Below, piece after piece: positions 1-46,538 of a stretch of DNA of 46,538 bases (the first letter of the stretch is position 1; every line of letters begins with the position of its first letter). Under the pieces are notes generated by a model. It ran no database searches, had not been told where the DNA came from, and was given only the letters and a program-made list of their open reading frames with translations. The stretch covers positions 1 to 46,538 of IMG/VR virus record IMGVR_UViG_3300045988_137997, one strand, 5' to 3'. Origin of the DNA: a virus. A program made the position numbers and the translations under genes.

Positions 1-901
1 CTGGTTGAAAGCGGTAGAAGCTCGTGAGCGTGTAGCGGGCTGGAAGAATGATGATCAAGGCGAGCAATGGCGGCAATCGATTCGAGATCATGCCTTACCC
101 CACCTTGCGAATTTGGATGTAGCAGAGATCACCCGCCGAGATGTTTTGGAGGCTCTGTTGCCCATTTGGGAGACTAAGAGCATTACAGCAATGGCCGTGC
201 GTCAAAGGCTCGAAATGATCTTCGACTGGTGCATCCGTGAAGGGCTGCGTGTAAAAGAGAATCCAGCTAGATGGAAGGGAGGCTTAGCCTTCGATCTTCC
301 GTCAAAGAATTACCTTCTAAAGCAGAACCACCATGAAGCTCCGACCTTTGACGAGTTGGTCAATGCCGCCCCTGCATTGATACTAACGGACGGAGGTCGA
401 TGCGCTCTTTTCGGAATCCTGACAGCCGGACGCGTAAGCGAGTTTCTAAAAGCCAAGTGGGAAGAAATCGATTTCGACGAGCGCGTTCTAACTATTCCGC
501 CAGAGCGACGTAAGGACAAAAAACCCTACCCTCATCGTGTCCCGCTTTCGAAGCAGGCGATCAAACTTTTGGAGATGATGCCACGAGATTCGGAATTTAT
601 TTTTAGAGGCCGCCGATCAAAAACATTGAGCTTGGATACCCCCAGAACGGCGCTCCGCTTCGCTGTCTGCAGACCTGTCACCATGCACGGATGCAGATCA
701 ACTTTTCGCGACTGGTGCTCTGAAAACGGCATTGATGAGATCGTGGCCGAAAAGTGTCTGCACGCTACCGGAAATGCCGTTGTGCAAGCCTATCAACGTT
801 CTGATCTCATAGAAAGACGCCGCTATGTAATGCAAAAGTGGGCTAACGCGATTTGCGTGCACTGTGAAGAGCTTCTAGCGCAATCGACTCCATCGCCTTG
901 A
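1..901 (+). CDS. int: Tyrosine integrase, P4/DUF4102 type, C-terminal part (ORF starts at 46176 and continues across the circular junction)
   Basis: In-frame continuation of the 46176..46538 ORF through the 55-bp terminal overlap. Catalytic signature present: R (GRVSEF), HxxR (HGCRSTFRDW), H...Y (LHATGNAVVQAYQRSD). Confidence 0.85.
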   Translation, partial: WLKAVEARERVAGWKNDDQGEQWRQSIRDHALPHLANLDVAEITRRDVLEALLPIWETKSITAMAVRQRLEMIFDWCIREGLRVKENPARWKGGLAFDLPSKNYLLKQNHHEAPTFDELVNAAPALILTDGGRCALFGILTAGRVSEFLKAKWEEIDFDERVLTIPPERRKDKKPYPHRVPLSKQAIKLLEMMPRDSEFIFRGRRSKTLSLDTPRTALRFAVCRPVTMHGCRSTFRDWCSENGIDEIVAEKCLHATGNAVVQAYQRSDLIERRRYVMQKWANAICVHCEELLAQSTPSP

Positions 902-1037
902 CGCGCTGAAAATAAAGCCGCCGCCAGCGGTAGAAGGCCTCTCGGCTCACACCGTGCCGGCGGCAAAGGTCTTCAACGCAGACTCCTCGCGCGAAATCGC
1001 GCAGAATTTTCTGTCCAATTTCGTCTGTGATCTTCAT
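843..1037 (-). pseudogene. Small HTH ORF resembling the N-terminus of IS3-family OrfA transposase (probable remnant)
   Basis: KILRDFARGVCVEDLCRRHGVSREAFYRWRRLY matches the IS3 OrfA HTH pattern. The C-terminal third is antisense to the int 3' end and looks non-coding. Confidence 0.3.
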
Positions 1038-1088: not shown

Positions 1089-1556
1089 TTTGTGCAGTCT
1101 GGCTAGGGCGTCGTGCTTTCCTGCGACTCTCTGAGAAAGGCTTGCACCTTCAGAAGATAAGCCTGCACCCTCTTCGAGAAGTCCGACACAGAGGTCGAGT
1201 CGCTCTGCAAAATGCTTGCAGGAACTTGCACCGGCTGCGGACAATCGCTTGCGATAACTGTCGGACTCGACGCGCACCCGCTCAAGCTCAATGCGCAGAG
1301 AGCCGCTATCGGCACGGCTTTCAGCCAGTTCAGCCTTGCGCTTTTCGATCTCTTCCCATGCTTGGGAAAGTGCTTCAGTTTGCTTGCGCTCATTTGCACG
1401 ATGCTCCTTTTCTTTGTCAGCCAAGGCCAGCGCATGAGCGGCTTTAAGCTCATCGATGTCGGCCTGATACAAGGCCGCCGCGAAGCGGTAGCCTCCGAAA
1501 AAAAGAGCGGCTGCCGCGATGGCAACCGCCCCGATCTTGATCCAAGTACTCATCAC
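1086..1556 (-). CDS. Rz: i-spanin (Rz-like)
   Basis: N-terminal TM helix (WIKIGAVAIAAAALFFGGY) followed by a long charged coiled-coil. Lies directly downstream of the endolysin with overlapping stop/start. Confidence 0.7.
   Translation of the reverse strand: MMSTWIKIGAVAIAAAALFFGGYRFAAALYQADIDELKAAHALALADKEKEHRANERKQTEALSQAWEEIEKRKAELAESRADSGSLRIELERVRVESDSYRKRLSAAGASSCKHFAERLDLCVGLLEEGAGLSSEGASLSQRVAGKHDALARLHK
1103..1393 (-). CDS. Rz1: o-spanin lipoprotein (Rz1-like) embedded in Rz in another frame
   Basis: ATG at 1393, lipobox LSLSG|C, and a Pro/Ser-rich mature part (CASSPTVIASDCPQPVQVP). Confidence 0.6.
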   Translation of the reverse strand: MSASKLKHFPKHGKRSKSARLNWLKAVPIAALCALSLSGCASSPTVIASDCPQPVQVPASILQSDSTSVSDFSKRVQAYLLKVQAFLRESQESTTP

Positions 1557-2017
1557 TGCTCCTCACCGATGCACCGTCGATACTCAGCTGCACGTCTGTC
1601 GACGAGCCCCTTGAGGCTCTTTCCGCTGGCAAAGTGCCAGCGTTTGATCTCTTCACACGCGCCGCGATAATCGCCGGCGTTCAGCTTTTTGACCAGCGTC
1701 GATCCACAAAAGTTTGAGCGGCCGATGTTGTAGGCAAGGCTCACATAGGCGTCGAACTCATAGGGCATCAGCGGCACCGTCACGCAAGACCTCACAGCAT
1801 CCTCAGCCACTCGAACGTCAGCCTCCAAGCGGTTCAAAGCATCGGGCACGCTAATCGTGTCCCCCAGCTTGACGCCTTCAGTCGATCCGAAGCCGATCGT
1901 CGGCACGTCCCCCGGCACGGGGATGTAGGCTTCCTCTTTGAAGCCCTCCCAAGTCGCAATGCTGATCAAACCGGCGGCCGTCAGAGACAAACCGCCGACG
2001 ACCATCCGCTTAAGCAT
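1553..2017 (-). CDS. Endolysin, GH24 lysozyme with SAR-like N-terminus
   Basis: T4-lysozyme-type motif EEAYIPVPGDVPTIGFGST. Weakly hydrophobic Gly/Ala-rich N-terminus (VVGGLSLTAAGLISIA). ATG at 2017 with an AAGGAG SD; the track ORF over-extends to 2155. Confidence 0.85.
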   Translation of the reverse strand: MLKRMVVGGLSLTAAGLISIATWEGFKEEAYIPVPGDVPTIGFGSTEGVKLGDTISVPDALNRLEADVRVAEDAVRSCVTVPLMPYEFDAYVSLAYNIGRSNFCGSTLVKKLNAGDYRGACEEIKRWHFASGKSLKGLVDRRAAEYRRCIGEEQ

Positions 2018-2333
2018 CTCGATCTCCTTTGGCCTTCTCGATCCTCTTGGCCACAGCGTCATCCGACACCTGACAGACAAGCTCTTCAATCTTGCGTGGC
2101 TTCCAAAGTCGGTAGAAAAAACGGCACGTCTCGACGATCTTAGGTAACGCCCCAACGATCATGATCAAGATGTAGACCAAAGTCAGGATCGTGACCCACG
2201 ATTCGAGCGGCACGCCTGCGATGCTCAGAGCTGACACACCAATTGCCGGTGCTGCCTTTACTGTGCCACTGGCAGACCCCGAAAAGATCGGGGTCAAGAT
2301 TCTTTTCAACACGCTGTCCTCCTCGCACATCAC
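2010..2333 (-). CDS. Holin (putative)
   Basis: 107-aa protein with two hydrophobic helices (AAPAIGVSALSIAGV; WVTILTLVYILIMIVGAL) and a charged C-terminus. Lies immediately upstream of the endolysin. Confidence 0.55.
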   Translation of the reverse strand: MMCEEDSVLKRILTPIFSGSASGTVKAAPAIGVSALSIAGVPLESWVTILTLVYILIMIVGALPKIVETCRFFYRLWKPRKIEELVCQVSDDAVAKRIEKAKGDRDA

Positions 2334-2896
2334 TTATCCTCTTCCAAACCAGATCCCTTCATGGGATGGAAATAGAGCCAATGCGGGCAGTATGGATCGG
2401 CTTCAATCTCAGCTTGAGTGTCGCCCCAAATCTTCCAGCCAGCCCCGAAGCGCACGCACTTCCAGTGGCCGAAAATCCGGTAATGCTTGACGTAGTACAC
2501 CTGCCAGCCAATCAGCTTGCCGTCTCGCTCGAGGTACCACTTACAAAGCCCACTTACGCCACTCAAATCACCTACTTTCGGATCGCCTTCAAACCACCAC
2601 AAATCACCAGGCTGGTAGTGGAGACCGAGCACAAAGTAGTTAAATCCGTAAGCCGAATTCCGGAAGAGCCACGCGCAACGGCGCATCCATGTCCAAAAGA
2701 CACCGTCACGAGGCCAACGCAGTTTGTGCTTGCGGTCACCATCACAAGTGTTGTCGGGCGTCTGGAACATCCAGAGCCACTTCGGAAGCCAGCCGTCGTC
2801 TTGGACGAAGCAGGCCAAAACTGGAGACAAAAGCTTGGCGAAAAGTTCGAACGGGACTCCGATTAATAAAAAAAGAAACCACTTAAAGTAGGCCAT
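2330..2896 (-). CDS. Hypothetical Trp-rich membrane-anchored protein
   Basis: ATG at 2896 with an AAGGAG SD. N-terminal TM segment (FKWFLFLLIGVPFELFAKLL) followed by a W/G/Y-rich domain. No family recognised. Confidence 0.5.
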   Translation of the reverse strand: MAYFKWFLFLLIGVPFELFAKLLSPVLACFVQDDGWLPKWLWMFQTPDNTCDGDRKHKLRWPRDGVFWTWMRRCAWLFRNSAYGFNYFVLGLHYQPGDLWWFEGDPKVGDLSGVSGLCKWYLERDGKLIGWQVYYVKHYRIFGHWKCVRFGAGWKIWGDTQAEIEADPYCPHWLYFHPMKGSGLEEDK

Positions 2897-2919
2897 AGCG
2901 GACAACTCCTTCAAAAATT

Positions 2920-2949
2920 AAGGCTCCCAGACACACGTCAAGGAGCCTT
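2920..2949 (+). promoter_or_regulatory. Hairpin that can sequester the SD of the second recombinase gene
   Basis: AAGGCTCC (2920..2927) is a perfect complement of GGAGCCTT (2942..2949). The second arm contains the AGGAG SD of the ATG at 2953. Confidence 0.35.
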
Positions 2950-2952
2950 GCG

Positions 2953-4095
2953 ATGACACTCACTACAAAACAAATTCAAGCTTTAAAACCGCGCGAATCG
3001 CGCTACTCAATCGCCGACGGCAACGGTCTGACCCTGCGCGTTCAGCCGTCCGGATCTAAGTCCTGGGTCTTCAGGTCGCACCATTCCGGCCGCATCACAG
3101 ACGAGACCATCGGCCACTGGCCTGAGATGAGCCTCAAGCAAGCCCGGATGATCGTCCGCCGGCGTCGCAAAGATGCAGGCCTTAAGCCGCCATCCGGGTA
3201 CGTGCTCAACGACGCCTTCAGGCTGTGGTGCGGCCTGAAAAAAGGTCGAATCGCTTCGTACAAAGAAGAACGACGTCGCCTCGAAAATCACGTCATCAGA
3301 GCCTTAGGACGCAAGCAAATCGACGAGATCACCGCGCCACTGATCATCAGCCACGTCCTTCCTATCGAGAGAGCCGGCAATCAGGCCACACTCAAAAGAA
3401 TTCTCATGCGTATGCGCGAGATCATGAATCTCGCTGTTTGTGCTGGCTACCTCCAGCACAACCCACTTGAACGCGTTTCGATGGTTTTCGCACCACCTGA
3501 GGTCGAGCCGATGCCGTCCGTGCACTGGTCTCGGATGATCGATGTCTGCCGCTGCTTTCTCGATGCTCCAGTCCGCACGCAGATCCTCTTTTGCTTTTCA
3601 GCGTGTTCGATGCTCAGACCGTCCGAAAACGCAAAGTTGCGTTGGTCCTGGATCGAAAATGACATCCTCACGATTCCTGCCGAAGAGATGAAGAAGCGCA
3701 AGGCCTTCCGTGTGCCACTTACACCCTTCATGCAGCAGATACTGGACGCCGCTAAACGACACTCTCGGCATCCACGATCTGACTATGTTTTTCCCGGGCG
3801 AACATCTGGCACGCACGTCAGCTCGCAATGTCTGGCCAAATACCTCCACACCACCGAGCTTTCCGGCAAGCTTGTCGCACATGGCTTGCGCTCCATGGCC
3901 CGAAGTTTCCTTGCCGATCGGCAAGCCCCCTTCGAAGCCGCCGAAATGTGCCTGTCTCACACCGTTGGCACAAGCGTCTCTCGGGCATATCAAAGAAGCG
4001 ACTACCTGGACGTTCGGCGCGATCTCATGGCCGCATGGAGTGACTATTTTTCAGGTTGTGCCGACAGTGCCGGCTTGAATCTCGATTTTCCATAA
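2953..4095 (+). CDS. Second tyrosine recombinase (P4/DUF4102 type); candidate tail-fibre shufflon invertase
   Basis: Arm-domain motif GLTLRVQPSGSKSWVFR. Catalytic R (MLRPSEN), HxxR (AHGLRSMARSF), H...Y (LSHTVGTSVSRAYQRSD). Lies directly beside the fibre cassettes. Confidence 0.85.
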   Translation: MTLTTKQIQALKPRESRYSIADGNGLTLRVQPSGSKSWVFRSHHSGRITDETIGHWPEMSLKQARMIVRRRRKDAGLKPPSGYVLNDAFRLWCGLKKGRIASYKEERRRLENHVIRALGRKQIDEITAPLIISHVLPIERAGNQATLKRILMRMREIMNLAVCAGYLQHNPLERVSMVFAPPEVEPMPSVHWSRMIDVCRCFLDAPVRTQILFCFSACSMLRPSENAKLRWSWIENDILTIPAEEMKKRKAFRVPLTPFMQQILDAAKRHSRHPRSDYVFPGRTSGTHVSSQCLAKYLHTTELSGKLVAHGLRSMARSFLADRQAPFEAAEMCLSHTVGTSVSRAYQRSDYLDVRRDLMAAWSDYFSGCADSAGLNLDFP

Positions 4096-5422
4096 GCCAC
4101 GGGCTTTTTCTCGCACATGAAGAGCTGCAGCCCTTGTGCCAAGCGCAGGGGCTTCGCACCTCGCTAGAGACTGACTTTCGAGGCGATTTCGACCTCAAAA
4201 AATGACTGCTCGTAACTGGACCTTTAGTCAGCTGTGCGTAGAAACTGGCATCAGCTGCAAACCCCCATTTGAGTCCGTGAAAGACTTCTCCATCAACATA
4301 TGGGTTACGCACATACATGTTGTATTCACGGCGGCCATCGTTTCGTGATGCGAGCTGTATGTATGCAATTCGATCGCCGTTTTCAGCGTAAACGGAATGT
4401 CCGTTAAATCTAGAGACATCGGGAATTGAATCATTCGAATCAACGGTTTGAGTCGATTCGATGACGGGAGCATGCGGGCCAAGCTTCAAATTGGCAGCCA
4501 TGCTGGTGCTGCCGTCCAATGCTAGGAATTTTGAACGGGTCCAAGCCGCTGTCACAGCTTCATCACTTGAGGCCTCTGCCAGTGGCCTGGGAACAAAGAA
4601 GGCCCTGTTTCCATTGGCTTTATATTCAAGAAACGCATGAGCATTGTTTTCGCTACCGCTTACGTTTTCGTACGAAAAAAACTCTAAGCGCGTCGATCCA
4701 TCTGTACCCGTTCGGAGAGTGATAACCCCGAGCCGCTCTTCAATGTCACTATCCCACCATTGAATTTGCCTATGGGAGACGTTTGATTTGTCCCCCTTAC
4801 TCACATAGCAAACTAACCCTAAATCGTTTTTAATGGATTTTTTACCAGTAACGAGTTCATTACCATCCAAGTGAACAACATTATTATCTTGAGCAATCTT
4901 GAACCACTCAGACCACTCACTCCCGTTTTTCACTCGGTAGAAAATGACGTTCGGCGTAGTTTGCTGAACACTCATTTGCCAAGCTACAGGACCGGCAGCA
5001 AATCTTCGATGTACGTGAATCAAAAGACCTGTGTAGTTCTGCGCCTGTTCACCTTTCGGTGAGTTTGCGACGTTGCTAGAGCATGTGTAGAAACCTGTGG
5101 CATCGACGTCATTCAAGTCCCTTGATGGGTAGGCATCAGACACATCTACAGCCGTATTAATACCCCCGGCAAGACCGTAACGACGAATCAACTTCCAGAC
5201 CCAAGAGGCAGGAACGATGTTCGAAGTGTTTACGTAATCTGCGGGCGTTTTGACCGTGCCGCCGCCATTCAAACTGGCTGCTCCAGTTACTTTCAGGCCC
5301 GAACTGAAAGTAACCGGAAAAGCCATAGTTGAGGACATCGCTATCCGCGGCAGTTCAACCGATTTCGCAGGGGATAGAGGGCAAATCGGCGATTGCCAAG
5401 ACGTCAATGACATTGACTTCAA
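4025..5422 (-). CDS. Silent tail-fibre cassette Sv3 (functional part about 4205..5296)
   Basis: Fibre-like sequence begins at the LKVTG site (5283..5296) and stops resembling fibre right after PVTSS (4205..4221). The remaining ORF to 4025 is low-complexity and antisense to the recombinase 3' end. The N-terminal extension to 5422 is antisense to Sv2. Confidence 0.6.
   Translation of the reverse strand: MKSMSLTSWQSPICPLSPAKSVELPRIAMSSTMAFPVTFSSGLKVTGAASLNGGGTVKTPADYVNTSNIVPASWVWKLIRRYGLAGGINTAVDVSDAYPSRDLNDVDATGFYTCSSNVANSPKGEQAQNYTGLLIHVHRRFAAGPVAWQMSVQQTTPNVIFYRVKNGSEWSEWFKIAQDNNVVHLDGNELVTGKKSIKNDLGLVCYVSKGDKSNVSHRQIQWWDSDIEERLGVITLRTGTDGSTRLEFFSYENVSGSENNAHAFLEYKANGNRAFFVPRPLAEASSDEAVTAAWTRSKFLALDGSTSMAANLKLGPHAPVIESTQTVDSNDSIPDVSRFNGHSVYAENGDRIAYIQLASRNDGRREYNMYVRNPYVDGEVFHGLKWGFAADASFYAQLTKGPVTSSHFLRSKSPRKSVSSEVRSPCAWHKGCSSSCARKSPWLMENRDSSRHCRHNLKNSHSMRP
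4205..4221. repeat. PVTSS-coding site, copy M1
   Basis: ACTGCTCGTAACTGGAC is identical over 17 bp to 8532..8548 and inverted relative to 6357..6371. Confidence 0.5.
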
Positions 5423-6728
5423 TGACTACACTCATTCTGGGGTTTGGAAGGTAGGAGGAACCTATCAAAATGCCGGAGCTTTTGGGAATGTCGGTGGTTT
5501 TTTGATCGTCCACAGCAATCGCGCCCATAACTACTTCTTTCAAATCTTCGAGAGAACACTGAATTCTGACCAGCTCCACATCAGAACCTACCACGGTTCT
5601 TCTGGCTGGCAGCCCTGGCGCAAGGTTATCTTGGAAACTGGCGGTGATTTGACGGGCGACCTCTCGACGACCGGCTCTTTCACGTCGTACAACATCCGCG
5701 GCTTTCGGCATCAGTACAGCGGCATTGACCGCGATGTAATTCCATCGTCGCAACAACAAATCTTTCCGTATGCCTTGCTCGATAAAAACGGCAAAACCGT
5801 TTCGATGTACAAGGTCATTCAAAACACCAGTGGAGGCATTGCCACTCAGATCGGCACGGTTCGGTCTGGTGATGACGGTGAGACTGAGTACGCACTGGTT
5901 GAGATTGGTTTCGATAGCGAGGGAGTCGCATACGCAAACGTCCCCAGCACGCCAAATGACGCTAACAACAATCGCGCTGCAACCTCAAAATTTGTCAACG
6001 ATCGGATCAGCGCACACGATGCGACATTGGTTCACACAACGGGATCTGAAACCATCAGCGGGTCAAAAACGTTCGAGAGCCCAGTTGTGAGCAAAGCGGT
6101 TTCGCTGATCCAAAGCACGAATTGGAGCGGGATTCGACTGAATGATACGAGTCGAACTAGTGATTCGACCAAGATGCTTGCTCAAATCCTTGATGCTGAT
6201 GGGAAGCGATGGATTGGGCTGGAAACCACGGCAAGCACTGATGGCAGTCGAACTGTGCAGTTAATTGGCCGCAATCGAGACGATACAGCCTGGCTCAATT
6301 TCATCAAGTTTTGGGAAAGAGCTGATGGAACGTACAACGTTTATTTGGCTCGAAATCCGGTTACGAGCAGTAACGACTCTAGTATCGCAACCACCAAGTG
6401 GGTCAACGATAAGTTGGCTGATTCGTCTATCACCGGCGAGGCAAAACTTGTCGAGACTTGGCACGACGGGGCCTCCTGGTATCGCATCTGGTCTGACGGC
6501 TTCATTGAACAAGGAGGCCAGTTTGAGTACGACACAAAGTTAAAAACCTACCACAAAGCTTACACATCCACCCCGAATGTTCAGATCAGTATGACTTTGA
6601 CAACATGGGGCTTAAATGACGATGGAGGTCTCTTCTTCCAATCGGGTCCTGACAAAAATGGGTTTTCTGTTAGAGGAAACGGGGACGCACTTGCCGGCAC
6701 GGTCTACTGGACCGCTAGAGGCTATTAG
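5250..6728 (+). CDS. Silent tail-fibre cassette Sv2 (functional part 5304..6728)
   Basis: Starts at the inverted LKVTG site. Contains fibre modules shared with Sv1 (NPVTSSNDSSIATTKWV). Ends ...GTVYWTARGY, like fibre 2 (YWMAIGY). Opposite strand to the expressed gene, with no credible own start. Confidence 0.65.
   Translation: MTVPPPFKLAAPVTFRPELKVTGKAIVEDIAIRGSSTDFAGDRGQIGDCQDVNDIDFNDYTHSGVWKVGGTYQNAGAFGNVGGFLIVHSNRAHNYFFQIFERTLNSDQLHIRTYHGSSGWQPWRKVILETGGDLTGDLSTTGSFTSYNIRGFRHQYSGIDRDVIPSSQQQIFPYALLDKNGKTVSMYKVIQNTSGGIATQIGTVRSGDDGETEYALVEIGFDSEGVAYANVPSTPNDANNNRAATSKFVNDRISAHDATLVHTTGSETISGSKTFESPVVSKAVSLIQSTNWSGIRLNDTSRTSDSTKMLAQILDADGKRWIGLETTASTDGSRTVQLIGRNRDDTAWLNFIKFWERADGTYNVYLARNPVTSSNDSSIATTKWVNDKLADSSITGEAKLVETWHDGASWYRIWSDGFIEQGGQFEYDTKLKTYHKAYTSTPNVQISMTLTTWGLNDDGGLFFQSGPDKNGFSVRGNGDALAGTVYWTARGY
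5283..5317. repeat. Head-to-head pair of LKVTG-coding sites (S1 5283..5296, S2 5304..5317)
   Basis: CCAGTTACTTTCAG-gcccgaa-CTGAAAGTAACCGG. S1 is identical to S3 (9643..9656). S2 is its inverted copy with 13/14 identity. Confidence 0.7.
6357..6371. repeat. PVTSS-coding site, copy M2 (inverted)
   Basis: CCGGTTACGAGCAGT is the reverse complement of the M1/M3 core with one mismatch. Confidence 0.45.
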
Positions 6729-6766
6729 CAGCGAAGGCCGCTTATTTGTTGAGCGGCCCCATTCGC

Positions 6767-7339
6767 TTACAAACACTCAGGCTTCTTTGGCCACATAACA
6801 TCAAGTGGGAAACCATCTTGCTGCGGCACATCGCGCAGCGCCTGGCGATAGACCTTTACGGCTTCGCGTTCTCCTTCAGACAGAGGATAGTCCGGCATGA
6901 CAAGATGGTCGGTCTCTGCCAGAAGCGCATCGCGCTGCGCCCGGACCTGTGCCGACGCTTCCGCCTTGACCTCTTCAGGCGTCTTTTCAGGGATCGCCTC
7001 GACGCTCCAGGACAGGTCTTTGCCTCGAGCCAGTCGATGCGTTTTGCTCCCGGCTGTGAGCGCCACAAAGAGCTTCTTCAATGTGTAGTCGTGAGGTGTT
7101 CTTGACTCATGTGCAACCACCATGCCAACGCACTCTTCAGGTGTAGTCGGGATCTTTTCTTCGAGCCACTTCTCGCCATCAAACCGGTAGAAGCAATCTT
7201 CCTTGCACGCCGGCGCAATTGTCGTGCAATTGTCCGGCATTGAAATAATTTCGCGCGTTACGTCATCAACTTGCGCGATAGTCGTTCCTGCGAAATAACC
7301 TTTTGAATCGTATTCATATACGTCAATTAAATTTTCCAT
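6767..7339 (-). CDS. Tail fibre assembly chaperone (Tfa)
   Basis: C-terminal motif DHLVMPDYPLSEGEREAVKVYRQALRDVPQQDGFPLDVMWPKKP is the classic Mu U / P2 G type. ATG at 7339. Confidence 0.8.
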   Translation of the reverse strand: MENLIDVYEYDSKGYFAGTTIAQVDDVTREIISMPDNCTTIAPACKEDCFYRFDGEKWLEEKIPTTPEECVGMVVAHESRTPHDYTLKKLFVALTAGSKTHRLARGKDLSWSVEAIPEKTPEEVKAEASAQVRAQRDALLAETDHLVMPDYPLSEGEREAVKVYRQALRDVPQQDGFPLDVMWPKKPECL

Positions 7340-7360
7340 TTTTAATTCCTTTATCAATAA

Positions 7361-7582
7361 CCGAACATCACTGGAGTTTGGTCTACAACTGGATATTCAA
7401 GAGATTCAATGCTGGCATACGGTGCTATATCTCACGAATATACTGGTCGTAAAAGTTCTGATGGACAAAACAACGTTGCTGGCGAACTAACTTTTGATGC
7501 TTCTCGTTGTAGTTCCGTTTTTGGTAAATCATCCGAAATCCAACCTCCCTCAGGCAAAGCCTTATGGATAATCAAGGTGTAA
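7361..7582 (+). CDS. Silent fibre-tip cassette A (73 aa, no start codon)
   Basis: Begins CCGAACATCAC (PNITG), is preceded by an in-frame TAA, and ends ...FDASRCSSVFGKSSEIQPPSGKALWIIKV*. Confidence 0.7.
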   Translation, partial: PNITGVWSTTGYSRDSMLAYGAISHEYTGRKSSDGQNNVAGELTFDASRCSSVFGKSSEIQPPSGKALWIIKV

Positions 7583-7801
7583 CCGAACATCACGGGTTAT
7601 ATCGGTGGCGGCGGACAGTCTGGCAACACAATTTATGGAGGCGCGTTCTACAACTATGGGCAAAATCAAAATACGGCAGATGACGGAAATTCGACCGTGC
7701 CGGTGATTGGTTTCGACGCAAGTCGTAGTTCTGCTGTGTATGGGGCCTCAGACGTTATTCAGCCTCCTTCTGGAAAAGCTTTATGGATCATCAAAACCTA
7801 A
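7583..7801 (+). CDS. Silent fibre-tip cassette B (72 aa, no start codon)
   Basis: Begins CCGAACATCACGGG directly after the TAA of cassette A. Ends ...FDASRSSAVYGASDVIQPPSGKALWIIKT*. Confidence 0.7.
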   Translation, partial: PNITGYIGGGGQSGNTIYGGAFYNYGQNQNTADDGNSTVPVIGFDASRSSAVYGASDVIQPPSGKALWIIKT

Positions 7802-7804
7802 TTT

Positions 7805-8014
7805 CCGAACATCATAGGCTCGTTCGTGGCTCACTACGGCAACAACCCTGTTTCCGGAGCTTTTTACAAGACCGGTACGGGCCGCTCAAAAAGCGGTACT
7901 GACAATGACGGCCAGGCGATTTCTTTCGATGCCTCATTGTGCAGCTCCGTATACGGTGCCGCAGACGTGATCCAGCCACCAGCCGGAAAGGCCTTGTGGA
8001 TCATCAAACTTTAA
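7805..8014 (+). CDS. Silent fibre-tip cassette C (69 aa)
   Basis: Begins CCGAACATCA (PNIIG) 3 nt after the TAA of cassette B. Ends ...FDASLCSSVYGAADVIQPPAGKALWIIKL*. Overlaps tail-to-tail with the expressed tip. Confidence 0.7.
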   Translation, partial: PNIIGSFVAHYGNNPVSGAFYKTGTGRSKSGTDNDGQAISFDASLCSSVYGAADVIQPPAGKALWIIKL

Positions 8015-10238
8015 TGATCCAAAGTGCTTTGCCTGCCGGTGGTTGGATGATGTCCGAAGAGCCATAGATAGGGTTACACAGAGAGGCATCGAACCCCATC
8101 TGGTAGACATTGGTATTGCCACCATCACCAGCGCCACCATTCTGTGTGTCCATACCGTAATACGCGCCTTCGGTGTTGTATCGATCGCCGTATTTGAACG
8201 CGTGGCCACCGTGTGTACCCGTGATGTTCGGTGCACCACTTTTGAGATAAGTGCCGACCTCTGATGCAGCGTTGGCTCCCATCACTGTGCGATTGCGCCA
8301 GTCAGGCAGTTTGAAGGTCGTGGAGCCATCGCCGGCACCCCAGGCCGTACCGATTGCCGCAAAAAGCTTGGCATACGTAGTGCGGCTGATCGTGCCCCCA
8401 TTGCAGGCCATAAAGCCCGATGGGACAGTCTTGCCCGCATATGGAAAGGCCACCCCAGATGGGATGGCCGAACCGAGACCTGCTTTAAAAAGTGCCCGTA
8501 CCCAGGCAGTCGTCGCAATCGAGTTGTCGTCACTGCTCGTAACTGGACTTTGACTCACCTTAAAGTAAGCGTTGCCGGCATTGTCTTCGGCGATTTGGAG
8601 AAAGTTTATCCAGCCAGAGTTATCCCGCCGTCTAGCAGTAACTTGAAATGTCCGACTTCCTTCGGTATTTGCCGTGCTCTCCAACCCCATGAACCGAAGT
8701 CCATCTTTGTCTATAACTTCGCAAATGGTTCGGTTAGCTGTTTTTGCACGAGAAGTGTCGGCAATGCTGACTCCTTCCCACGGAACGCTCTTTATGAACG
8801 TACTGGATGCGGATAGCAAAGATGAAGTGAATGTCTTGGCACCGTTGATTTTTTCAGCGTTGACAGTGTGAACTAACTGGGACTGCTCGGCATTCCAAAT
8901 ATAGGAACGAAGCCACCTTGTGGTGACAACTTCATAACCGTTCGATGTTTCTGCTGGGGAGTGATTGGCTCGAACATATCGAGTTCCATCTGCCCGATGA
9001 CCTATCTCCAGGCTGCTCCAGTCGCCATCTTCGTTATCAGCGTTGTAAAAATTGATATCGGACAGCACTACAGTGGTCTCACCTGATGCATATTGGAAGT
9101 GCTTGAGAAGCAATCCGCCTTTCCCGTTTTTGTCCCTATATCTGGCAAACCAAGTCTGCGTAGTGGTTTCGGGGACTTTCGTGAAATCTTGGTCTGGGCG
9201 TACCACTTCCAACCCAGTTGACGCATAGACATTGATCGGGCGATAAAATTTTTTCCACCCATTTATTTCTTCGTCACCAGTTAGGTGGACAAAAGCATTG
9301 TTTGCCCACTTGGCCGTGATCAGCGTATGGTCATTCACTGAAGCCGATGGGCTATCGGCAGCAATGATCCGGACTTCCTCGTTCGCGTATTCCTTGATTG
9401 TTAAGAACAGACGCCATGAAGTATTTGCTCGATTTCGACCATTGAAACGCAGGTCTCGGCTGCCGTCCTGGTTAAAGTAGGCTTCTTCAGAGATAAGTGC
9501 AGCACCATCTCTATCCGCAATTCTGTAAACAATGATGTTTTTCGAAGAATCCCGTTCAGTATCAGAAACGCTTACATCAGATCTACTGCCGAAAAGCCAT
9601 TGGTTTGTATTGAATGTGATTCGGTTCCCGTGTGCAGCTTGACCAGTTACTTTCAGTAACCCGCCGATGGTGGCATCACCGTTCGCCTGAAGAGCCTCAA
9701 GAGTGGTCTTGCCGTGGACGACCAAGTTTCCGGAAACATCTCCATTGCCGTTCAGGTCAAGCTCTGTGGCCGTGACTTTCTTGGCCGAAACTGCCTGCAA
9801 AGTGCTCGCGCCATTGACTTTCAGCGTGCCACTGGCCGAAATGTTCGTCGCATTGACGGCGGCCAAAGTGCTCGTTCCGGTCGCCGTGATGCTCGTGACA
9901 TTCAAACCACCTTGCGCATTCAAGGATCCCTTGATGGTGGCAGCTCCGCCCACCACAAAAGTCCCGGACACATCACCATTGCCATTGATGTCGAGATTCG
10001 TGCCAGTGACCTTGCCAAAGCTCACGTCGCCAAAGCGAGTCGCTGCGGTCAACCCCTGATCAACCGACTTCGGCGCGTTGCCGGACCCCGTCCGGATCAG
10101 CTTGCCGGCCACCTGATCAGCCATCAGTTGCTTGTATGCCTGATCCGCAACAGCCACTTTGTCGGACGGCATGGCGTCCGTTGACATAAGTTCGGACGAA
10201 AAAAAAGCGCGTTCGGACGCGCTGTAGTAGTAAGCCAT
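8004..10238 (-). CDS. Tail fibre 3 (expressed isoform: constant N-module + Sv1 + tip D)
   Basis: 744 aa. Contains G-x-L-x-V-x-G repeats, repeated ..SIATTAWV.. fibre modules, and a tail-collar-type domain (FPYAGKTVPSGFMACNGGTISRTTYAKLFAAIGTAWGAGDGSTTFKLPDWRNRT). Good SD. Confidence 0.85.
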   Translation of the reverse strand: MAYYYSASERAFFSSELMSTDAMPSDKVAVADQAYKQLMADQVAGKLIRTGSGNAPKSVDQGLTAATRFGDVSFGKVTGTNLDINGNGDVSGTFVVGGAATIKGSLNAQGGLNVTSITATGTSTLAAVNATNISASGTLKVNGASTLQAVSAKKVTATELDLNGNGDVSGNLVVHGKTTLEALQANGDATIGGLLKVTGQAAHGNRITFNTNQWLFGSRSDVSVSDTERDSSKNIIVYRIADRDGAALISEEAYFNQDGSRDLRFNGRNRANTSWRLFLTIKEYANEEVRIIAADSPSASVNDHTLITAKWANNAFVHLTGDEEINGWKKFYRPINVYASTGLEVVRPDQDFTKVPETTTQTWFARYRDKNGKGGLLLKHFQYASGETTVVLSDINFYNADNEDGDWSSLEIGHRADGTRYVRANHSPAETSNGYEVVTTRWLRSYIWNAEQSQLVHTVNAEKINGAKTFTSSLLSASSTFIKSVPWEGVSIADTSRAKTANRTICEVIDKDGLRFMGLESTANTEGSRTFQVTARRRDNSGWINFLQIAEDNAGNAYFKVSQSPVTSSDDNSIATTAWVRALFKAGLGSAIPSGVAFPYAGKTVPSGFMACNGGTISRTTYAKLFAAIGTAWGAGDGSTTFKLPDWRNRTVMGANAASEVGTYLKSGAPNITGTHGGHAFKYGDRYNTEGAYYGMDTQNGGAGDGGNTNVYQMGFDASLCNPIYGSSDIIQPPAGKALWIIKV
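8221..8235. repeat. PNITG-coding site D in the expressed gene (inverted relative to A/B/C)
   Basis: The reverse complement reads ACCGAACATCACGGG, identical over 15 bp to site B. Confidence 0.7.
8532..8548. repeat. PVTSS-coding site, copy M3
   Basis: 17-bp identity with M1, inside sequence that is otherwise only about two-thirds identical. Confidence 0.5.
9643..9656. repeat. LKVTG-coding site S3 at the constant/variable junction of the expressed fibre
   Basis: CCAGTTACTTTCAG is identical to S1 and in the same codon phase as S1 and S2. Confidence 0.7.
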
Positions 10239-10250
10239 ATCTATACCTCG

Positions 10251-11162
10251 TCAGTAGCCGATTGCCATCCAGTAGCTCGAAACGCCTCCATTGCCGTTGT
10301 GCTTGAAGGCTGCGTTGCCTCGCTTGAGCGTCGACAGCGCGAAAGTCGGCGCAAAGTTCCCTTTAGCCTCTGCGACTGCAAAAACGGCCTTGGTTGGAAA
10401 AGCCACCGGGAAAGCGATCACGCTGTTTCCGTTCGATGCCAGCGTCGCCTGCCCCCACTGCAGAATCAGGCCGTTCGGCAGCTTCTGCATCCCCCAGTCG
10501 CCATGCGCCTTCAAAAAGGCAGCCAGAAGGTTTGCCGGAGTCAAAGCCTTGGTCTGATCCTTGCCGGCCGCCACTTCGGAGGATGTCGCAATGCGGATCA
10601 AGCCGGTGCGCCCGGTCGTAGCTGTGCGAGCCGACAAGGATGCGCAGGTGACGACACGTGTGGCATCCGTGCCCGTGATGGTCTCTTCGTTCGTCGCCAG
10701 CTCGACCACGCCCAGCGTCGACGTCGTCGCCGGCGGGTTCAAAAGGTTGGCGTCACCAAAAATGACTTGGTCGGCACTGAAGTCCGTCACCGCGATGTCG
10801 ATGGCCAGCATCGAAATGGCCATCGCCGACTTTTGCAGAATCGGCGTGTTTTGCGAGTAGACAGCAAAGAGAGTGCCCTTGTCGGTATACAGCCCAACTT
10901 CGTAGACCGTATAGGCGTCATCCGTACTATCCTGCACCGTGCAGTGGATGATATTGTCGGCCACTGCACCGCCGGCGACCGTTGTCAGTCGCTTAAACTC
11001 GGCCTGGAGCTGAGTCTGCTCAGGTGTGGCCGTGTACTGTCCGGTCCCGTATCCGACTTCAGTAATCAAAACAGCATCTGTGCCGGCTTGCGACGCGGCC
11101 ACTACCTCATCGAGGCCGGCCTGCGTGATGATCATTTTGAGTTCGTTTGCAGTATCGGGCAT
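10251..11162 (-). CDS. Tail fibre 2 (P2 H-like collar N-domain, gp53-like C-terminus)
   Basis: N-terminus is paralogous to fibre 1 (IITQAGL...YTVYEVGLYTDKGTLFAVYS). GTD..A.TP fibre repeats. C-terminus LILQWGQ...FPVAFP...YWMAIGY. Confidence 0.8.
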   Translation of the reverse strand: MPDTANELKMIITQAGLDEVVAASQAGTDAVLITEVGYGTGQYTATPEQTQLQAEFKRLTTVAGGAVADNIIHCTVQDSTDDAYTVYEVGLYTDKGTLFAVYSQNTPILQKSAMAISMLAIDIAVTDFSADQVIFGDANLLNPPATTSTLGVVELATNEETITGTDATRVVTCASLSARTATTGRTGLIRIATSSEVAAGKDQTKALTPANLLAAFLKAHGDWGMQKLPNGLILQWGQATLASNGNSVIAFPVAFPTKAVFAVAEAKGNFAPTFALSTLKRGNAAFKHNGNGGVSSYWMAIGY

Positions 11163-39538: not shown

Positions 39539-39721
39539 ATGAAAAGAGACATCTACTTTGATCCGATTGTTTACGACGCTTGTTGGAAGGCATATCGCAA
39601 ACGCGTTTGGCGAGAACGGCTTGACTTCTGCAAGAAACATTGGTCGCTGCTTGCGATCGGCGCACTGGCCGTCACTGGTGCAGTCGCACTCGTCTTTTGG
39701 AGGCTGTCATGGATGAACTGA
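39539..39721 (+). CDS. Small C-terminally anchored membrane protein
   Basis: AAGGAG SD. C-terminal TM segment WSLLAIGALAVTGAVALVFW. Confidence 0.5.
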   Translation: MKRDIYFDPIVYDACWKAYRKRVWRERLDFCKKHWSLLAIGALAVTGAVALVFWRLSWMN

Positions 39722-45676: not shown

Positions 45677-45981
45677 ATAGCCAGAAGATGGCACCACTAA
45701 AGGTGCTGAGTACAGAAGAAGTCTGCGACCGGTATCAAATGAGTCGATTCTCTCTTTACGTAAAATTAAAGAGCGCAAGTTCCCGTCTCCAACCGGAAAG
45801 CGTCAGAATCGACGCATTTGGGACGTACGAGTGCTGGAGGATTACGATACAAAAATGCTCCAACTGGCAACCAAAAGCTGGGATCCTGCACTGGTTACCA
45901 CCTGAAAGTAGTGGTATCAAAAACGGTATCAAAACCGACACACCTCTTTCTATTCCACGCTATACGGCCTTATTCGACTGA
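45673..45981 (+). pseudogene. AlpA/excisionase-like HTH gene with a frame disruption near 45759
   Basis: Frame 1 gives LSTEEVCDRYQMSRFSLY. The -1 frame continues RKIKERKFPSPTGKRQNRRIWDVRVLEDY and stops at 45905. Together these are a near-perfect AlpA motif. The uninterrupted ORF loses the FP motif. Confidence 0.55.
45913..45936 (+). repeat. Arm-type site candidates (P arm): tandem GGTATCAAAA(A)C x2
   Basis: 12-bp direct repeats at 45913..45924 and 45925..45936. Confidence 0.5.
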
Positions 45982-46006
45982 CACCGCTCTCCGCCAAGAA
46001 TGCAAC

Positions 46007-46045
46007 CTCGCAGAACCATTGTTCTGCGGGGTTTTTCTTTTTCCT
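46007..46045 (+). terminator. Intrinsic terminator in the attP region
   Basis: CGCAGAAC-catt-GTTCTGCG followed by GGGTTTTTCTTTTT. Confidence 0.7.
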
Positions 46046-46119
46046 CCTAGAAAATCAAGGCTTTCCGGCTGTTTAGCCGCGTGCAGACGCGTTGTATCGT
46101 GTGCGCGTGCGTTGCAAAC

Positions 46120-46177
46120 TTGATACCATACAGCGGTATCAAAAATGGTATCCATGCAAAATCTAGGTGGTATCAAT
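46120..46177. repeat. Arm-type site candidates (P' arm): four GGTATC(A/C) copies
   Basis: TTGATACC (inverted, 46120..46127), GGTATCAAAAAT (46135..46146), GGTATCC (46147..46153), and GGTATCAAT overlapping the int ATG (46169..46177). Confidence 0.5.
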
Positions 46178-46538
46178 GGCCGGAACAAGCAAAAAGTTGA
46201 CACAGGCGGACGTGCGAAAACTCCCTGACGGAAATCACAATTTCGGGGGCGGTTTGTACCTTCGCGTGCGAGGAAGCTCGCGCACGTGGTCGGTTCGAAT
46301 TCAGGTGGAATCAAAACGGACTTTCCGAGGTTTGGGCAATGCGTTCGCAATTACCTTGAGTCAAGCCCGTATCGAATGCGAAAGGCAGAAGTCGGCGATG
46401 CGCTCTGGCGACCTCCAGACAAAGGCCGAGAAGGCTCGAGAAGAACGCAGAAAAAACTTACCCAAGACGACCTTTAAGTCTGTCTGGTTGAAAGCGGTAG
46501 AAGCTCGTGAGCGTGTAGCGGGCTGGAAGAATGATGAT
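46176..46538 (+). CDS. int: Tyrosine integrase, N-terminal arm-binding part (continues at position 56 after the overlap)
   Basis: My own translation: MAGTSKKLTQADVRKLPDGNHNFGGGLYLRVRGSSRTWSVRIQ... (DUF4102-type). It runs off the window end in frame with 5..901. Confidence 0.85.
   Translation, partial: MAGTSKKLTQADVRKLPDGNHNFGGGLYLRVRGSSRTWSVRIQVESKRTFRGLGNAFAITLSQARIECERQKSAMRSGDLQTKAEKAREERRKNLPKTTFKSVWLKAVEARERVAGWKNDD
46484..46538. repeat. 55-bp terminal overlap identical to positions 1..55 (circular-assembly signature)
   Basis: Exact identity checked base by base. The overlap lies inside the integrase ORF and preserves its frame. Confidence 0.9.

Follow-up and report, generated by a model that had tools for sequence, protein, structure and literature searches.

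We analysed a 46,538-nucleotide stretch of viral DNA (IMG/VR record IMGVR_UViG_3300045988_137997, positions 1 to 46,538), hereafter called the window, for the role of rec#2, the second of its two tyrosine recombinase genes, which we propose to encode the invertase of a tail-fibre shufflon lying beside it. As a contig the window is circular, its final 55 bp duplicating the first 55, and its unique length is 46,483 bp. Pfam matches of its open reading frames (ORFs), including a CI-like repressor, a gpA-type terminase and a P2-like baseplate, describe a temperate myovirus, and sequence relationships point to Sutterella or a close relative, a betaproteobacterium, as the host of what would be a gut prophage. 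On one side, rec#2 is followed outwards by minus-strand genes for a DUF7338 protein (2330..2896) and a lysozyme (1553..2155); on the other side lie the cassettes and the fibre gene. The gene interrupts the minus-strand late genes and converges on the first silent cassette (4205..5297, minus strand), as had been described in an earlier model-generated reading of the same DNA (the sequence-only reading). The features of the locus, with lengths of proteins in amino acids (aa), are given below together with int#1, the other recombinase gene; A, B and C are the three classes of candidate recombination sites.

2920..2949, plus strand: hairpin pairing the AGGAG Shine-Dalgarno sequence (SD, 2941-2945) of rec#2.
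2953..4095, plus strand: rec#2, 380 aa, ATG start; three-domain tyrosine recombinase of the P4/IntSXT type, proposed fibre-shufflon invertase.
4129..4153, plus strand: stem-loop with an 11-bp stem (GCCCTTGTGC CAA GCGCAGGGGC), lying past the stop codon of rec#2 and ahead of the first site.
4205..4219, plus strand: site B1, ACTGCTCGTAACTGG, outermost and next to rec#2.
4220..5282, minus strand: silent module M2, with an open frame (LKVTG...PVTSS) as dictated by the A and B sites.
5283..5297, minus strand: site A1, CCTGAAAGTAACTGG, head-to-head with A2.
5303..5317, plus strand: site A2, ACTGAAAGTAACCGG.
5318..6356, plus strand: silent module M3, open and in frame.
6357..6371, minus strand: site B3, ACTGCTCGTAACCGG.
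6372..6728, plus strand: silent alternative C-terminal module T3, ending at the stop codon at 6728.
6767..7357, minus strand: tail-fibre assembly chaperone (Pfam PF16778, 1.1e-23), inside the invertible region.
7360..8015, plus strand: three silent fibre-tip cassettes, each opening with a C site and closing with ...LWIIK and a stop codon.
7360-7374, 7582-7596 and 7804-7818, plus strand: sites C1, C2 and C3 of the silent tips.
8004..8217, minus strand: expressed fibre tip (tip 4).
8218..8232, minus strand: site C4, ACCGAACATCACGGG, within the expressed gene.
8233..8531, minus strand: module T1 of the expressed fibre, collar-domain region.
8532..8546, plus strand: site B2, within the expressed gene.
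8547..9642, minus strand: module M1 of the expressed fibre.
9643..9657, minus strand: site A3, within the expressed gene.
9658..10238, minus strand: constant N-terminal part of the 744-aa tail fibre.
46176..46483 joined to 1..901 (46176..46538 at the window end), plus strand: int#1, 402-aa P4-type integrase gene across the circular junction.

The rec#2 ORF proved to be intact, as the sequence-only reading had held, with three domains and a full set of catalytic residues. Pfam identified Arm-DNA-bind_3/DUF4102 at residues 3-74 (PF13356, 1.4e-15), Phage_int_M at residues 104-175 (PF22022, 1.8e-12) and Phage_integrase at residues 204-350 (PF00589, 6.9e-15). The only NCBIfam model to match was PRK09692 (P4/CP4-57-type), at 169 bits and thus below its cut-off of 434. 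The protein carries the signature of the tyrosine recombinase superfamily (R...H-x-x-R...H/W...Y plus a lysine): in an alignment with 16 homologues, 59-87% identical to rec#2, R222, H310, R313, H336 and Y346 are invariant, as is K247, the lysine being assigned by position only. In the same alignment the arm domain was conserved about as well as the remainder, with 16 invariant positions among the first 75. An AlphaFold (AF2) model (predicted local distance difference test score, pLDDT, 83) had lambda Int (1Z1G) as its best full-length match in the Protein Data Bank (PDB), and its fold also matched Xer and Tn1549 Int. When the modelled N-terminal domain was superposed on the arm domain of the HPI P4-like integrase (3JTZ), a template modelling (TM) score of 0.94 was obtained, with a root-mean-square deviation of 1.1 Å and 34% identity; a PDB profile search returned 3JTZ at 9.4e-16 and also 2KKV. 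By its three domains, its invariant catalytic residues and its fold matches to lambda Int and 3JTZ, rec#2 is an intact heterobivalent enzyme of the integrase type. These profile and structure searches, which the sequence-only reading had proposed as a check, place the protein with the P4/IntSXT integrases, whose DUF4102 arm plus central integrase domain it shares, and not in the Rci family. BLASTP against Rci of R64 (sequence NC_005014) aligned only 175 aa at 22% identity (E 0.07), and Rci contains PF00589 but neither an arm nor a Phage_int_M domain, whereas rec#2 has all three; membership in the Rci family was rejected on this marginal match and the differing domain make-up.

Orthologues of rec#2 were found in a narrow set of bacteria. 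A scan of 185,579 species genomes gave 18 loci with an orthologue 47-62% identical to rec#2, all of them in Sutterella, Duodenibacillus, Ca. Aphodousia or unclassified gut metagenome-assembled genomes (MAGs), with three such loci in Duodenibacillus massiliensis; the next-best matches, in Ruegeria and rhizobia, were at most 33% identical. With metagenome contigs included, the orthologues (Sutterella, Duodenibacillus, Ca. Aphodousia) span 47-100% identity and form a tight group. A tblastn search of INPHARED revealed no close relative in cultured phages: the best match was 31.5% identical and the matches were ordinary integrases, so that no annotated precedent exists there. The full-text literature searched, with incomplete coverage, described neither a shufflon in Sutterella phages nor an invertase of the DUF4102 type. 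In what follows, L numbers designate loci or contigs of relatives compared with the window, and window coordinates in these comparisons carry the prefix w (e.g. w4220).

The window encodes only two recombinases, both of the tyrosine type and 26% identical to each other. The absence of a Hin/Gin/Cin/Pin/Min-type serine invertase, already stated from the letters alone, held in all searches: Mu Gin gave a best E of 5.5 by tblastn against the circularised window and a best E of 0.21 by phmmer --max against 941 six-frame ORFs of at least 30 aa, and no Resolvase domain was detected in 30 ORFs scanned with Pfam. The sequence-only reading had taken the enzyme at the circular junction for the obvious integrase, and the comparison with integrated relatives agrees. 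Orthologues of int#1 border host DNA in L008, L038 and L044, and integrated prophages are ordered as host genes, integrase-like gene or att end, lysis genes, rec#2, cassettes, fibre and baseplate. The rec#2 gene is therefore interior in integrated prophages and not at the end of the element next to att, where an integrase gene would lie, and it was not seen bordering host DNA in any integrated relative examined. The GGTATCA repeats reported beside int#1 are present as five copies and one inverted copy at 45731-46175, just upstream of the gene. A neighbouring gene had been called AlpA/Xis-like; the 64-aa ORF adjoining int#1 (843..1037, minus strand) matches HTH_Tnp_1, HTH_23 and HTH_28 (3e-08), and a small helix-turn-helix protein fits an excisionase or recombination directionality factor, but none of its matches is AlpA-specific. 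From these comparisons, int#1 is very probably the true integrase of the phage. Phages with an identical rec#2 protein carry different integration modules (L080, L082, L083, L085, L087 and L088 as against L079, L084 and L086); where int#1 is replaced, an unrelated integrase of 399 aa and two small ORFs take its place, and the prophages concerned adjoin the host rpsF-ssb-rpsR-rplI-dnaB cluster.

Ten sites in the window fit the pattern AC[C/T]G-NNN-[A/G]T[A/C]AC-NGG, A1 and C3 being slightly degenerate. They are 15 bp long and asymmetric, without dyad symmetry; conservation is confined to the core and the 3' arm, and the left flank is not conserved. The three classes differ in their centres, ACTG-AAA-GT for A, ACTG-CTC-GT for B and ACCG-AAC-AT for C. 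Exact matches to the consensus number nine in the window against 0.09 expected, eight of them within the locus, from which the pattern itself was derived. The ninth, ACTGGCCGTCACTGG at 39664-39678 (plus strand) in the early region, has a unique central triplet and no partner and was treated as a chance match; the same 15-mer of the early region is also present in L079. The sites look like those of a tyrosine recombinase rather than like gix or hix, because they are short and asymmetric and because partners share an identical core of 8-9 bp.

The sites, which encode the peptides LKVTG, PVTSS and PNITG, impose a reading frame in which all cassettes are open, and the tips end with ...LWIIK and a stop codon immediately ahead of the next site. 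If each of the three middle modules can be followed by T3, or by T1 with any of four tips, the locus could encode about 15 fibres. An end similar to T3 is expressed in L005/L016, and in related phages unrelated sequence lies precisely between sites A and B, in the slot held by M1 in the window. The ORF 4025..5422 (minus strand) was considered as a 465-aa gene and rejected: in the frame of the sites it stays open no further than between A1 and B1, and its other 60 aa are nonsense reaching into the 3' end of rec#2. The chaperone gene lies within invertible DNA and would become antisense to the late operon after inversion at A or B sites, an arrangement seen in L067; this suggests that fibres ending in T3-type modules do not need the chaperone, or that the chaperone has its own promoter. 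A fifth tip cassette (CPNITGYITGGGQ...) is present at 15069-15427 of L079 (compare window 8002-8021), where it lies on the minus strand and directly follows the expressed tip on its downstream side. The L079 scaffold is otherwise 99.9-100% identical to the window, an N gap aside, and the window may have lost or collapsed one tip cassette. Positions 7925-8093 of the window form a tail-to-tail repeat of 84 nt, 70% complementary.

We then compared the locus between assemblies, and all evidence on junctions comes from this comparison. L008 and L009 encode an identical recombinase protein (P0002) and differ by the inversion of a module of 1.15 kb, whose junctions fall within ACTGTCCGTAAC (B type) and CTGCAAGT (A type). 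Eleven metagenome contigs sharing the T1 flank were examined for the modules of the window. Copies of M3, silent in the window, were found at 99.4-99.5% identity joined to T1 at a B site in L075 and next to the recombinase gene in L067, while the expressed tip 4 of the window is a silent cassette in L067, L071, L074 and L075 (94-97% identical). Altogether, window modules (94-99.5% identical) occur elsewhere in other slots and orientations, joined exactly at the sites, and inversion at C sites makes L072 and L073 reciprocal isomers of each other. Across the recombinant instances, site position 1 moves with the left flank and positions 10 and 13 move with the right flank. This places the exchange within positions 2-9 of the site and is consistent with the 6-8 bp overlap of tyrosine recombinases. 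The constant-region flank is always found with an A-type centre and the T1 flank always with a B-type centre.

Within any one phage all of the 2-11 sites have the same 8-bp core, whereas this core differs between phages at synonymous positions, variants being CCGAATAT, CCGGACAT, CCTAATAT, CCTGACAT and CCGAACAT; the A centres (AAA/CAA) and B centres (CTC/TCC/CCC) likewise vary between phages and are uniform within each. Such concerted identity argues for a homology-dependent strand exchange rather than for protein constraint alone. Contigs encoding exactly the rec#2 protein of the window are 98.8-100% identical to it as far as w4220 (B1), beyond which their modules differ. Several contigs end at the sites: L083 and L084 on the last base of an A site and L085 one nucleotide short of it, L088 one nucleotide past B1, and L018 on the last base of a C site. 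Since an assembly graph ends in this way when a sample holds several isomers, these ends indicate isomer heterogeneity within samples. Together, the recombinant junctions, the contig ends and the identical flanks with different modules are indirect signs of a shufflon with coexisting isomers. Three collapsed contigs (L009, L080 and L081) have the order recombinase, B site, module, A site and constant region and are devoid of the chaperone, T modules and tips; their fibre ORF of 605-609 aa runs into the 3' end of the recombinase gene. They could be either deletions between direct repeats or chimeric assemblies of isomer mixtures.

The recombinase gene is tightly linked to these sites. In 26 of 26 loci the first site and cassette, a C-type site opening a silent tip, lie about 60-160 nt after the stop codon of the rec#2 orthologue, and wherever flanks are available the gene follows the lysis genes and the fibre chaperone and precedes the fibre tips. 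The orthologues of these loci range from 47 to 100% identity to rec#2, and the placement beside the cassettes, which the sequence-only reading had likened to that of rci next to the R64 shufflon, is borne out by them. The smallest arrangement is a two-site switch (L045, L047), and 6-11 sites are present in L040 (S. wadsworthensis DSM 14016), L042 (D. massiliensis), L051, L044 and L012. The last of these has a Mu-like baseplate and still carries recombinase and cassettes, so that the unit formed by both travels between phage types; among the examples of the gene beside the chaperone and tips is a prophage of S. wadsworthensis with a Mu-like baseplate. In the relatives without cassettes (L005/L016 and L006), only the first 71 codons of the rec#2 gene are left. 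Truncations of this gene recur among relatives (L005/L016, L006, L072, L073 and L001), at about aa 64-71, about aa 134 and aa 364, equivalent to window positions 3146-3158, 3355 and 4044. The deletion in L073 has its endpoint exactly at site A (w5294), and L001 joins w4044 to w6386, losing M2 and most of M3. Relatives with a truncated recombinase may represent frozen shufflons.

We therefore propose, with a probability of roughly 80%, that rec#2 is not an integrase but a site-specific invertase dedicated to a multi-level shufflon of the tail fibre. It is singled out as the enzyme by linkage, namely its interior position, the adjoining sites and cassettes in all 26 loci, and its reduction to a stub where cassettes have been lost. 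According to this model, rec#2 would recognise the short asymmetric sites inside the fibre coding sequence and exchange strands within the 8-bp stretch at site positions 2-9. Partners would need identity over this stretch, so that sites of classes A, B and C would each recombine only within their class. Inversion between opposed sites would bring a silent module into the expressed fibre gene, a single gene thereby yielding some 15 fibres, while integration would be carried out by int#1. The catalyst, the cleavage position, the orthogonality of the classes and the role of the arm domain are steps that we infer.

Several observations weigh against this proposal. The link between enzyme and inversion is correlative. 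In L072 and L073, rec#2 is truncated (at about aa 134 and about aa 64, respectively), yet these loci are cassette-bearing inversion isomers; either the inversion is older than the truncation, or it was supplied in trans by another copy. The peptides LKVTG, PVTSS and PNITG encoded by the sites are conserved, and part of the site conservation is thus at the protein level. The conserved arm domain could not be matched to any candidate arm-type site. Finally, the collapsed contigs, if they are deletions between direct repeats, would mean that the system is not strictly limited to inversion.

The clean inversion difference between two loci with truncated recombinase genes could also be explained by a genuine shufflon whose driver acts in trans, be it int#1 or a recombinase of the host or of a co-resident prophage; rec#2 would in that case be a relic, a helper in excision or a further integrase. 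Several such prophages can reside in one Sutterellaceae genome, as with the three loci of D. massiliensis, and action in trans is therefore possible. We consider this explanation improbable: the linkage of rec#2 to the first site holds in every locus over 47-100% identity and in two phage architectures, genes of the int#1 type vary or are replaced while an identical rec#2 stays, no consensus site lies near int#1 or the GGTATCA repeats, and rec#2 is never at the border with host DNA. Only marginally less favoured is the idea that rec#2 mainly excises or captures cassettes as circles, in the manner of integrons, or locks the fibre by deletion, rather than acting as a reversible invertase. It would account for the collapsed contigs, which are without all the DNA between two direct-repeat sites, for the truncation endpoint of L073 exactly at site A, and for the retention of an arm domain typical of integrases. 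Against it, the dominant differences from relative to relative are inversions and slot swaps that keep all parts, collapsed contigs can be chimeras assembled from isomer mixtures, and neither free cassette circles nor attC-like structures were seen. That there is no programmed inversion at all, but ordinary mosaic evolution by homologous or illegitimate recombination at conserved fibre motifs, with rec#2 incidental, is very improbable, for although the evidence is wholly comparative, the sites coincide with conserved peptide motifs and modules do cross between phages with different central triplets (M3 is on a CAA-type A site in L069), the breakpoints always fall in the same 8 bp, reciprocal isomers included, RecA-type exchange needs a longer identity than 8-15 bp, silent promoterless cassettes stay open and in frame while inverted, synonymous positions of the core agree within a phage and not between phages, contigs end exactly at sites, and flanks 99-100% identical carry different modules.

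Returning to rec#2 as the invertase, a more detailed version of its origin can be put forward tentatively, and we hold it to be somewhat doubtful as a whole. In this version a heterobivalent lineage of P4/IntSXT integrases has been domesticated, and one enzyme serves three orthogonal site sets, partners being chosen only by the central bases of the 8-bp overlap. The conserved arm domain, possibly with the stem-loop after the gene, would provide topological or directional control, which is exerted in Rci by the C-terminal domain and in serine invertases by an enhancer. The same enzyme may in addition excise or capture cassettes as circles.

Two RNA or DNA structures flank rec#2. Upstream, 2920-2927 pairs perfectly with 2942-2949 (9 bp including a G-U pair), so that the hairpin covering AGGAG that had been noticed from the letters alone is real by fold energy: at -18.1 kcal/mol (z = -4.3) it was equalled by none of 200 shuffles. 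The SD is paired in the window and in L004, L005, L008, L011, L047, L050 and L067-L071 through differing stem sequences; stems covering the SD or the AUG in relatives include GUCUC/GGAGAC in L004, GGCUCUUU/AAAGGAGCC in L011 and a start-codon stem in L002. The maintenance of such a stem with different sequences supports a function. On the minus strand of 2897-2952, the palindrome is followed by TTAATTTTTG and then by the SD of the DUF7338 gene; in the window, L002, L005 and L008, UUAAUUUUUG stands after the stem and immediately ahead of the SD that serves the DUF7338/lysis genes. Read on this strand, the stem resembles an intrinsic terminator, or an attenuator, that would act on the late transcript between the fibre region and the lysis genes. 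The tightly limited expression with which the sequence-only reading had found the hairpin consistent is thus just one reading of a stem that is itself real and recurrent, since the same palindrome is terminator-like on the other strand; the two functions are not exclusive of each other. In a scan of 2200-10400 for promoter and terminator consensus sequences, matches were no commoner than in shuffled sequence, the loop-length limit of the scan missing the 2920-2949 hairpin.

Downstream of the gene, the stem-loop at 4129-4153 shows compensatory changes in two pairs, and its G-U pairs are possible only in plus-strand RNA. A stem-loop with apical TTGTGCCAAGCGCA is found 30-60 nt past the recombinase stop codon in the window, L002, L004, L008, L023 and L067-L071, and more distant relatives have a GTGCC..GGCAC-type palindrome in its place. 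The TTGTGCCAAGCGCA element was also considered as a repeated arm-type site and rejected, being present in a single copy in the window, with matches allowing 3 mismatches at chance level. By these patterns of change it seems to behave as a plus-strand RNA hairpin; the stem-loop could be a 3' transcript structure or an accessory site.

The sequence-only reading had stated that known phage fibre switches (Mu, P1, e14, p15B) are driven by serine invertases. This overlooked Rin of Bifidobacterium breve and B. longum prophages, reported in 2018 as the first phage-encoded tyrosine invertase (PMC6109161); a Rin-type shufflon was later noted in Eggerthella lenta prophages (PMC8778435). Rin is XerD-like, is devoid of an arm-binding domain and acts on 11-bp rix sites, TTCCCTAACCC, and its isomers were seen between prophage and virion DNA (PMC6109161). 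Both systems have a phage tyrosine recombinase beside tandem promoterless cassettes for the C terminus of a receptor-binding protein, and both have short asymmetric crossover sites. However, Rin is a two-domain enzyme of Actinobacteria siphoviruses with a single class of sites, whereas rec#2 is a three-domain protein of the P4/IntSXT type in a myovirus of a betaproteobacterium, with three classes that would allow combinatorial exchange of internal modules as well as of tips. Set against the published description of Rin, rec#2 falls outside that type by its arm domain and its different site consensus.

The likeness to the R64/IncI shufflon is of another kind. There too, the gene for a tyrosine recombinase converges on a shufflon, one of several segments whose multiple inversions swap the C termini of an adhesin, but the sfx sites have the core GTGCCAA and a single class, and the target is the plasmid pilus gene pilV, not a phage fibre. 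Rci belongs to the IntP2 group without an AB domain, in the classification that also defines the P4-like/IntSXT subgroup (PMC8138268). Rci/sfx sites are asymmetric, with a conserved core and one arm and no dyad symmetry (PMC11852207), and the fibre sites of the window share this plan, having a conserved core and one arm, a variable other arm and inverted copies inside an adhesin gene. The resemblance of rec#2 to Rci probably lies in the mode of working, with descent from P4/IntSXT integrases. As Rin and Rci are both without an arm domain, the suggestion that an arm-bearing shufflon enzyme would be unusual was well founded. From the integrases of its own architecture (CP4-57, HPI, SXT), with an arm domain superposing on 3JTZ, rec#2 differs in that these integrate and excise islands, integrative and conjugative elements (ICEs) or phages at att, whereas rec#2 lies inside the prophage and is tied to inverted sites within a gene.

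The serine systems Min (p15B), Gin (Mu), Cin (P1) and Pin (e14) likewise produce alternative tail-fibre C termini through inversion, with a chaperone gene within or next to the invertible DNA, and Min of p15B in particular has several crossover sites and shuffles internal fibre modules. Serine fibre invertases are small recombinases that act with a 2-bp crossover on dyad-symmetric sites of about 26 bp and use a Fis-bound enhancer. Here, in contrast, no serine enzyme is encoded and the sites are without dyad symmetry.

We know of only one other phage group that uses tyrosine-class switching of fibres or receptor-binding proteins. A tyrosine-driven phage receptor-binding shufflon is consequently not new in itself, given the Rin precedent (PMC6109161). 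What appears to be new, on the comparisons made here, is an arm-bearing invertase of the P4 type, three site classes distinguished by the central triplet, a Gram-negative myovirus setting and the spread through Sutterellaceae prophages. If our proposal is true, an integrase with an intact arm domain works as an invertase, which raises the question of the target of the arm and of the bias between inversion and deletion. One enzyme with three triplet-distinguished classes would also be a natural orthogonal shufflon, useful for synthetic DNA shuffling; among current Rci homologues, no fully orthogonal pair was found in the combinations tested (PMC11852207). For annotation, a second integrase gene inside a prophage beside fibre genes should not be counted as an integration module, and in metagenomics such loci break assemblies exactly at their sites. 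The family is common in Sutterellaceae prophages, including those of the type strains S. wadsworthensis DSM 14016 and D. massiliensis Marseille-P2968, which makes the proposal testable, and it would extend tyrosine-driven shufflons of receptor-binding proteins from Actinobacteria siphophages to Gram-negative gut myophages.

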